The notes under the pieces were generated by a model. The model saw only the letters and a list, made by a program, of their open reading frames with translations. It had not been told where the DNA came from and searched no databases. From Octopus vulgaris (lineage: Eukaryota): DNA of 64,000 bases. The stretch lies in NCBI GenBank assembly GCA_951406725.2, contig OX597823.1:113274001-113338000 (forward strand), written 5' to 3'. The position numbers were made by a program, and so were the translations under genes. Of the stretch, positions 44,290 to 45,430 are shown piece after piece; within the stretch, counting starts at the first letter, position 1, and the number at the start of each line of letters is the position of its first letter.

Positions 44290-44845
44290 ATGCCCTGATG
44301 CAGTACCAAGCAGTGGCTCTCATGGCTTCTGATCTTAACTGATTGGAAGTGTTATCATGTACGTTGTTTTGTCTTGGTATAAAAGATGGGCTACAGCAAA
44401 TATTCTGCTCAATGCCACAGATTTGCTTGTCAGTTGTTTGACCTTAACCAGTTGAGCATGTCTCTTAGTGGCTGACGATATGTGCATCTCTGACCATGAG
44501 CAGAAGTAGTGGGGGAGCATCATAGCCATGTGTTGAGAGGGATTCTTTGGGGTTTGAATAATTCACCTCTGGAAACATGGGTGGTTCGTTCAACATCCTT
44601 AAACAACCCTCATTCAGGGATCTTAAGAGTGGGATGGGTTACTCGACCTGAAAAAAATTCTAACTGGGCCCCACCTGCAAGGTCATGTGCTGTTTATCTT
44701 GATATGAGATCACCAATTCGCGCACATATGGTTGTGATGCATGTGTCTAGTGTACCCTTATCAGACGGATAGTCATGATGGGTATAGTGGGCTTCGTATA
44801 TTTTACCCCAATGTCAATTTGATGGCATGCTCTGCTTGCTCACTC
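44290..44845 (+). mobile_element. 556-bp AAT-embedded non-coding element, copy 2
   Basis: ATGCCCTGATGCAGTACC...CTCACTC, flanked by (AAT)n. Confidence 0.92.
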
Positions 44846-44874
44846 AATAATAATAATAATAATAATAATGATAA

Positions 44875-45430
44875 ATGCCCTGATGCTGTACCAGGCAGCG
44901 GCTCTCATGACTTCTGATCTTAACTGACTGGAAGTTTTATCATGTACATTGTTTTGTCTTTGTATAAAAATGGGTTACAGCAAATATTCTGCTCAATACC
45001 ACAGATTTACTTGTCAGTTGTTTGACCTTAATCAGTTGAGCATGTCCCTTAGTGGCTGACGGTATGTGCATCTCTGATCACGAGCAGAAATAGTCAGGGT
45101 GCATCATAGCCATGTGTTGAGAGGGATTCTTTGGGGTTTGAATGATCCTCCTCTGGAAACATGTGTGTTTCATTCAACATCCTTAAACAACCCTTAATCA
45201 GGGACCTTTTGAGTGGGATGGGTTACCCAACCAGAAGAAAATTCTAACTGGGCCCCACCCGCAAAGTCATGCGTTGTTTATTTTGTTATGAGATCACCAT
45301 TTCACGCACATATGGTTGTGATGCATGTGTCTGGTGTACCCTTATCAGACGGGTAGTCATGATGGGTATCCTGGGTTTCGTATATTTGTACCCTTGTGTC
45401 ACTTTGATGGCATGCACTGCTCTCTCACTC
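44875..45430 (+). mobile_element. 556-bp AAT-embedded non-coding element, copy 3
   Basis: Same termini and length. Separated from copy 2 by ~29 bp of (AAT)n. Carries its own private substitutions. Confidence 0.92.

Follow-up and report, generated by a model that had tools for sequence, protein, structure and literature searches.

What is the sequence that recurs in AAT repeats of this octopus DNA, and which machinery placed it there? The question arises from positions 44290-45430 of the window (the whole 64-kb stretch that was analysed), an interval made up of two tandem copies of one element with 28 nt of AAT repeats between them. The initial annotation had proposed the element as a fixed-length, non-coding candidate partner of the neighbouring Dong-type LINEs, present in five copies that all lie on the AAT strand with AAT repeats on each side. 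The five copies, their strand and their flanks were confirmed by alignment of the window, the fixed length was not, and the element is likely (probability about 0.8) to be a retrotransposon of the non-autonomous kind, for which the RT and RLE of Dong-type LINEs would copy the RNA into AAT tracts.

Copies of the element and their AAT target

The five copies are found on the plus strand at 14778-15583, 44290-44846, 44875-45431, 59501-60057 and 60151-60700, with identities of 91-98% to the 59501 copy. The three uninterrupted ones measure 556 bp; inclusion of the final A, which could equally belong to the AAT tract, gives 557 bp. Within the tandem pair, copy 1 (44290-44846, full-length, 556/557 bp) matches the 59501 copy at 94% identity along nt 1-557, and copy 2 (44875-45431, full-length, of an older subfamily) does so at 91%; the pair is preceded by an AAT tract at 44132-44289 and followed by an AAT/AAC tract at 45431-45619, both taken as target sequence, while the separating tract occupies 44847-44874. 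The 59501 copy is young and full-length, sharing 97-99% identity with dozens of dispersed copies, and its neighbour at 60151 is a young copy without the first 7 nt. As initially described, two pairs stand behind Dong-type LINEs, the one at 44290/44875 following a family-B end after about 158 nt of AAT and the one at 59501/60151 following a family-C end after about 18 nt. Since an AAT-rich flank on a given side is expected at 0.8-0.9% of random positions (20,000 draws), the AAT flanks of the window copies are not due to chance.

The absence of an ORF and of terminal inverted repeats (TIRs) was likewise upheld: none of the six frames of the element has a Pfam match at E ≤ 1, Dong proteins find no match in its six-frame translation, and a check of its ends detected no terminal inverted repeats. 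Rfam gave nothing at gathering level in the window, and on the element chance-level matches only. The copy at 14778 is interrupted by a 251-bp insertion at 14846-15096, which has no other match among the loci compared and no Rfam match, and in which two hammerhead-core-like motifs were recognised by regular expression only.

Genome-wide abundance was estimated from the 2.8 Gb searched and from an unselected sample of 800 kb taken at 16 arbitrary places. An exact 15-nt motif of the element 3' end occurs 15,384 times (reversed control, 4), and an exact 18-nt motif of the 5' end 7,643 times (control, 0). The unselected sample contains 15 copies, spread over 8 of the 16 blocks with a single block accounting for five, from which some 50,000 copies can be roughly extrapolated; an equally rough figure of about 34,000 follows from the exact-motif count when 11 3'-intact copies are taken for every 5 exact motifs, so that the total would be roughly 30-50 thousand copies. 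The element accounts for a visible share of the AAT-tract interruptions in the genome. A metagenome scan for the 5' motif returned 0 matches.

The first 100 listed 3' ends, all from the start of one contig and counted by hand, are followed by a perfect (AAT)4 in 74 cases, by at least two AAT units in 95 and by ATT in none. On the other side, AAT precedes 79 of the first 100 listed 5' ends and an ATT-like tract precedes 1; among the other 21, 17 adjoin a piece of the 5' region of the element itself, one tandem array contributing 11 of these. Bystander copies agree, with AAT downstream of 24 of 28 3'-intact matches and ATT downstream of 0. Insertion into AAT tracts with one polarity, suggested by the window, is supported by the flanks and orientation in these sets. 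An AAT tract is present upstream of truncated as well as full-length copies, and 7 of 77 copies lie in the AAT-reading tails of oppositely oriented repeats that we presume, from their motifs, to be SINEs. These two observations indicate that the AAT tract is the target of insertion and not just a tail. Copies with no AAT flank amount to 3 of 15 in the 800 kb, all of them old and fragmentary, and a few (L041, L149) have AAT downstream only.

Junctions and the 5' end

Among the 11 3'-intact copies of the unselected DNA, 5 are full-length and 6 are 5'-truncated at nt 60-411. About half of the copies being truncated, "fixed length" is a property of the master element and not of the family. The 28 bystander matches show the same dispersion: the start lies at nt 1-3 in 11 of them and at nt 29-411 in 17, although a few in the second group reflect locus edges or internal deletions. 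In full-length copies the start is sharp, the commonest junction being ATAA directly followed by ATG (34 of 59). At 7 of 60 loci, which were picked by similarity and read by eye, the copy is preceded by one or more tandem 5' fragments that each begin anew at nt 1 and are spaced by 0-5 nt. In L015 and L044 the 5' fragment and the full copy are separated by 29-125 nt of AAT, so that an AAT leader may be present on part of the templates.

Intact 5' ends with non-AAT neighbours amount to 239 matches, of which 30 were inspected. One of these (L183) carries a complete tRNA-Glu ending 3 nt 5' of element nt 1. At a similarity-picked locus (L049), a complete 5S rRNA (89 bits), itself preceded by a partial 5S copy, ends 7 nt 5' of the element. 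At two more of the 30 inspected loci, L188 and L194, apparent SINE 5' parts stand between the AAT tract and nt 1. No target-site duplication was evident at the non-AAT junctions inspected, and inside AAT tracts such duplications are unreadable. Comparable events are on record for R2, which in vivo jumps from the 5' end of its RNA to tRNA and snRNA, according to the available part of the report (PMC3414825). Together, the fixed 3' end, the ragged 5' ends, the restarted fragments and the tRNA and 5S fusions point to target-primed reverse transcription, on templates that can be read as mostly beginning within about 5 nt upstream of nt 1. The junctions thus support the proposal of a non-autonomous retroelement whose RNA preferentially begins at nt 1 or no more than about 5 nt away from it. 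The retrocopied 5S rRNA (L049:2038-2257) is a variant with an unusually A/T-rich stem set that still folds as 5S. Separately, tandem arrays built from the element's first 68 or 23 nt were met at C1:30148154-30149013 and C4:153180374-153180655, the 5' end seeding minisatellites.

How such a 5' end is specified was addressed by looking for a promoter, a small-RNA head or a ribozyme. The precise 5' end had been thought to imply an internal promoter or a processing step; no sign of such a promoter, or of a ribozyme, emerged from the searches described here. The two hairpins proposed for this region can form, their special stability being the part of the claim that failed: the first 70 nt have a folding z of -1.2, and 30 of 300 shuffles are as stable. 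The statement that clear tRNA A/B boxes are missing was corroborated by an Rfam search, in which tRNA (RF00005), 5S and SRP heads had no match on the element at E ≤ 10, and by a test of tRNA likeness. In this test the first 90 nt weakly resemble tRNA-Arg and tRNA-Lys, the best p over the genomic tRNAs compared being 0.07, whereas the control, a tRNA-headed SINE from L188, gave p = 0/200 against at least 6 of 19 tRNAs. Three T4 runs, at nt 78, 334 and 512, would also argue against Pol III transcription. A likeness to 7SL noted by eye was dropped for want of an SRP match. HDV-like ribozymes were sought through Rfam and through strict and relaxed descriptors, with no hit on the element; the descriptor had no positive control and was equally negative on those stretches of families A and B to which it was applied. 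A TATAAAA box (TATAAAAG) is located at element nt 89-96 (window 59589-59596), and 5' truncation points are not clustered downstream of it.

Neighbouring LINEs and a common 3' fold

The window contains three single-ORF LINE families (A, B and C) inserted in TAA repeats, with an RT and a CCHC finger recognised by Pfam and an RLE motif read by eye from the translation; on this architecture and target they are assigned, provisionally, to the Dong type. Family A (approximately 37190-41165, plus strand) has one frameshift and a 3' UTR fold at 41096-41142. Family B (41370-44131, start approximate, plus strand) is 5'-truncated and frameshifted, and was recognised through Pfam RVT_1 and zf-RVT and by tblastn. 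Family C (58745-59482, ends approximate, plus strand) is 5'-truncated, with a 3' UTR fold at 59402-59449. Many open frames of 1235 aa of family A exist elsewhere in the genome, and the solved structures that match its protein are those of R2 proteins only. Active AAT-targeting RLE LINEs are present, then, in the genome that houses the element. Directly 5' of the truncated family C copy lies an AAT-type tract of about 332 units (57736-58732). The family A 5' UTR exceeds 1.1 kb (L065:1-1174; window 37150-37190) and includes captured microsatellite-like stretches and an internal repeat, and part of this leader also precedes a family B element starting at about 61.5 kb (window 61480-61600).

The element and these LINEs insert alike. 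The 3' junction, directly followed by AATAAT, is common to the element and to the ends of families B and C, and the polarity of the element relative to AAT is that of the RLE LINEs. In sequence they share nothing recognisable: the element has no significant match to the LINE 3' UTRs compared, nor any match to the family A 5' UTR of more than 1.1 kb or to the start of family B in the window. The best-supported loose ends listed for the last 148 nt of the element, over four runs, consisted of its own sequence and AAT only, with nothing foreign upstream. For lack of homology to LINE UTRs and of foreign loose ends, no partner can be named among the families compared. Exact element 5' ends lie within 30 nt of a LINE end 130 times for family C and 38 times for family B, out of about 7,600, against a poorly known background of 5 (C) and 7 (B) exact end motifs in the 800 kb. 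These counts are a weak hint towards family C and do not support family B, the partner considered initially. So few 5' ends near LINE ends also prove that the element is not itself a LINE tail, and its identification as a LINE 3' UTR was rejected, as were a solo LTR and a Penelope pLTR.

A closer relation is suggested at the level of RNA structure. The 3' UTRs of nine RLE-LINE groups have in common a covarying 47-nt stem-YWA-hairpin fold, in which an outer stem of about 9 bp ending CC/GG is joined through a 3-nt YWA junction to a 6-bp hairpin with a G-rich loop. It rests on an alignment of 16 copies from the nine groups, chosen by hand from 22 anchored candidates, with the six that did not fit by eye left out. 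RNAalifold recovers the hairpin unaided; for the full structure, 76.7% of the cells of this LINE-only alignment are paired and 13 of 15 pairs show two-sided change, figures that are inflated by relatedness and manual selection, and that are reached by 0 of 500 shuffles, slid controls giving 34-45%. The derived covariance model picks LINE 3' ends cleanly in the 800 kb, and in the window it scores 42.9 bits at 44061-44106 of family B, which has close relatives in the training set. This fold was not seen described in the literature covered.

A counterpart is predicted at element nt 456-503, with a 13-bp stem ending CCC/GGG, TTA, a 6-bp hairpin with one bulge and a GGGTA loop. It would correspond to 44745-44792 in copy 1 (by descriptor, profile and pair table), 45329-45376 in copy 2 (descriptor and profile) and 59956-60003 in the 59501 copy (descriptor and pair table), all on the plus strand. 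Among 1000 dinucleotide shuffles and 1000 genomic 130-mers, none attains the descriptor score; the descriptor was written with the element already in view and misses families B, C and F. A profile trained on the LINEs gives 15.9 on the element versus a shuffle maximum of 11.9 (0/150), held-out real LINE families scoring at least 13.5 in 10 of 16 cases and at most 4.9 in 6; the other four window copies score 11.6-14.4, near the shuffle maximum. The folding z is -3.0 for the whole element and -3.6 for its nt 441-520, the only one of 12 such segments below -2. Across 95 copies all three common variants of the long stem keep pairing, and frequent two-sided change in the fold was not found. The covariance model detects none of the five window copies at E ≤ 2 and no element copy in the 800 kb at E ≤ 10; within one copy the predicted site is its top match (8.6 bits, E = 0.07, 15 of 15 pairs formed), and in the 60151 copy its best match is at 60601-60648. 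The observation that the element lacks 3' homology to the Dong families stands for sequence, while in structure a fold resembling that of the LINE 3' UTRs is predicted. What is new here is the common LINE fold and a matching fold near the element 3' end, a match that beats shuffles yet is missed by the covariance model at genome scale and is suggestive only. We lean towards the element fold serving recognition by the LINE protein, and a possible pseudoknot between the CC and the G-rich loop was noted by eye.

Mechanism, origin and relatives

Mobilisation by AAT-targeting RLE LINEs is the best inference from target, polarity and junction. In the corresponding model, the LINE protein would nick the TTA strand of an AAT tract, bind the element RNA via the stem-TTA-hairpin fold, which lies some 55-100 nt before the RNA 3' end, and start reverse transcription at the fixed RNA 3' end. 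Near the 5' end of the template, the enzyme would either join the target by microhomology or jump to another RNA. The 5' end itself might, as a best guess, stem from a read-through transcript of RNA polymerase II that is then cleaved or trimmed at the border with the AAT tract.

The systems closest to this model are passengers of other RLE LINEs, compared here on the basis of the accessible parts of the respective reports. The elements EhSINE1 of Entamoeba (partner EhLINE1) and EdSINE1/R4-N1_ED (partner R4-1_ED) are, like the octopus element, about 500-600 bp long and devoid of an ORF (PMC2996970; PMC3747384; PMC3118788). They likewise have no recognised small-RNA head and include truncated copies, and their LINE partner, which is a feature of the Entamoeba system, encodes an RLE. 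In contrast to the octopus element, EhSINE1 has about 70 bp of 3' sequence in common with its LINE as well as internal repeats of 26-27 bp, and it inserts near T-rich stretches with target-site duplications (TSDs), whereas the octopus element enters AAT tracts in one polarity and is far more abundant. The R2 SIDEs are also site-specific non-autonomous passengers of similar length (529 bp), which retain the LINE 3' fold and depend on a class of enzyme that jumps to tRNA and snRNA at 5' ends (PMC3414825); they differ in their 28S rDNA target, and in a 64-81% identity to LINE ends and a 5' HDV-like ribozyme of which no counterpart was found in the element. Dong itself, an R4-clade LINE of Bombyx mori and octopods, has the TAA/AAT microsatellite target in common with the element (PMC3774820, PMC8967140, PMC9115989), but is autonomous and, in B. 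mori, carries a 5' self-cleaving HDV-like ribozyme (PMC3774820).

Set against the definitions of these classes, the element presents the marks of a retrotransposon, namely a high copy number without an ORF, a fixed 3' end with 5' truncations, and the junctions described above. Its target, polarity and junction are those of a Dong/R4 passenger, the 3' sequence identity expected of one being undetected against the UTRs compared. The homology of both ends to LINE UTRs that defines SIDEs was not detected, the 5' UTR comparison covering family A and the family B start, and neither was the small-RNA head with A/B boxes of Pol III SINEs, nor the occurrence in both orientations, TSD of 4-6 bp and paired copies around an internal region that characterise solo LTRs. 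In its workings the element resembles, in sum, both the R2 SIDEs and the SINE-like partners of Entamoeba LINEs, without passing the test of shared sequence. The literature searched, supplements aside, describes neither the element nor any passenger of Dong; an unclassified consensus may exist in Repbase, in Dfam or in repeat libraries of octopus. The sections available of the octopus papers mention Dong LINEs only (PMC8967140, PMC9115989), and those of a further paper list only RTE, Ingi, Vingi and R2 as clades with bipartite non-autonomous LINEs (PMC5786205).

The lack of shared sequence leaves room for different accounts of origin. The element could be an old, internally deleted derivative (SIDE) of an extinct or unsampled Dong-type family, its 3' fold being inherited and not mimicked, a possibility that is less likely than not and that would leave the transposition mechanism unchanged, differing in origin only. 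In letters the element fold is nearest to that of family D (GGTGT, ACC, TTA and GGTAGT positions, by eye), the LINE UTR comparison covers some 18 clusters only, and R2 SIDEs keep their 3' fold despite sequence divergence in the accessible account (PMC3414825). The same R2 SIDEs possess an end identity of 64-81% and an HDV ribozyme, neither of which is seen in the element, and no match was obtained to Dong proteins, to the family A 5' UTR (>1.1 kb) or to the 3' UTRs compared. A chimeric RNA unrelated by descent to LINEs, parasitising several Dong-type families at once through mimicry of an as yet undescribed 3' recognition fold and defining its own 5' end at the border with AAT by a processing signal, seems a doubtful alternative; such a signal would be neither a Pol III promoter nor HDV-like, and might be a new self-cleaving motif or a nuclease-blocking structure.

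Accounts that replace the Dong-type enzyme altogether fare less well. Use of another LINE class with relaxed template choice (e.g. RTE or Tx1-type), the AAT stemming from the enzyme or from a tail made upon insertion, is unlikely. RTE is reported as active in octopus, in the available part of one paper (PMC9115989). No sequence partner was found among the RLE LINEs compared, and L041 and L149 have AAT only downstream; against this, AAT 5' of full-length and truncated copies cannot be explained by a tail, the polarity and 3' junction equal those of RLE LINEs, and the fold resembles theirs. The copies in tails of oppositely oriented, presumed SINEs (7 of 77, labelled by motif) speak in the same direction. 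A Pol III SINE whose tRNA head has decayed beyond recognition could account for the sharp 5' end and the weak tRNA-Arg/tRNA-Lys likeness (p = 0.07), but is quite improbable: the L188 SINE reached p = 0/200 in the same test, RF00005, 5S and SRP gave nothing at E ≤ 10, T4 runs interrupt the element at nt 78, 334 and 512, and young copies are 97-99% alike, so that decay of a single copy is not the reason. A solo LTR or DNA-level element, suggested by ends readable as TG...CA and by the presence of nt 107-271 (165 bp) in a TIR-bearing family, is largely refuted already and highly improbable, given the one AAT polarity, the 5'-only truncation, the small-RNA fusions at nt 1, the absence of TIRs and of any internal domain beside the 60 loci, and the fact that the terminal CA can equal a C plus the first A of the tract.

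Should the element indeed be a passenger of Dong-type LINEs, its interest would lie in how the template is chosen. The few known cases of RLE-LINE passengers (Entamoeba, Drosophila rDNA) all have terminal sequence in common with the LINE; an AAT-targeted animal passenger with tens of thousands of copies, recognisable by fold only, would mean that template choice by this class of enzyme is open to parasitism through structure alone. The accessible portions of work on the P1-J1/2-P2 "R2 tag" of R2Bm (PMC10499050) and on the avian pseudoknot-hinge-stem (PMC12180492) describe 3' folds of 40-65 nt as sufficient for template choice. Like the Dong-type fold, these recognition cores combine two stems with a short A-containing junction and survive sequence divergence; they differ from it in topology and sequence, and the Dong-type fold is a prediction from covariation. 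The 47-nt covarying fold of the nine RLE-LINE groups offers, in this respect, a direct candidate, akin to the R2 tag, for the minimal signal by which Dong/R4-type proteins choose a template, and it opens the question to tests with short RNAs.

Part of the element also occurs in another repeat family. Its nt 107-271 (44396-44560 in copy 1, plus strand) recur in older MITE-like repeats, about 480 bp in length and bordered by long terminal inverted repeats, which were first met through loose ends of the element in public contigs. The consensus segments are 97% identical, and the shared segment stops at the inner edge of the right arm of the MITE-like family. Copies of this MITE-like family are about 91% identical to their own consensus and have TA-like flanks, with 284 exact motif matches and at least 1,616 first-look candidates (e.g. 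L265:1110-1625). Old copies of the element do not carry the MITE states at five diagnostic columns. The minus strand had been likened by eye to the start of a transposase, which was not confirmed by six-frame translation and Pfam, where nothing was found. Elsewhere in the window, PIF1-like helicase fragments (Pfam PF05970, PF21530) occupy 48517-49696.
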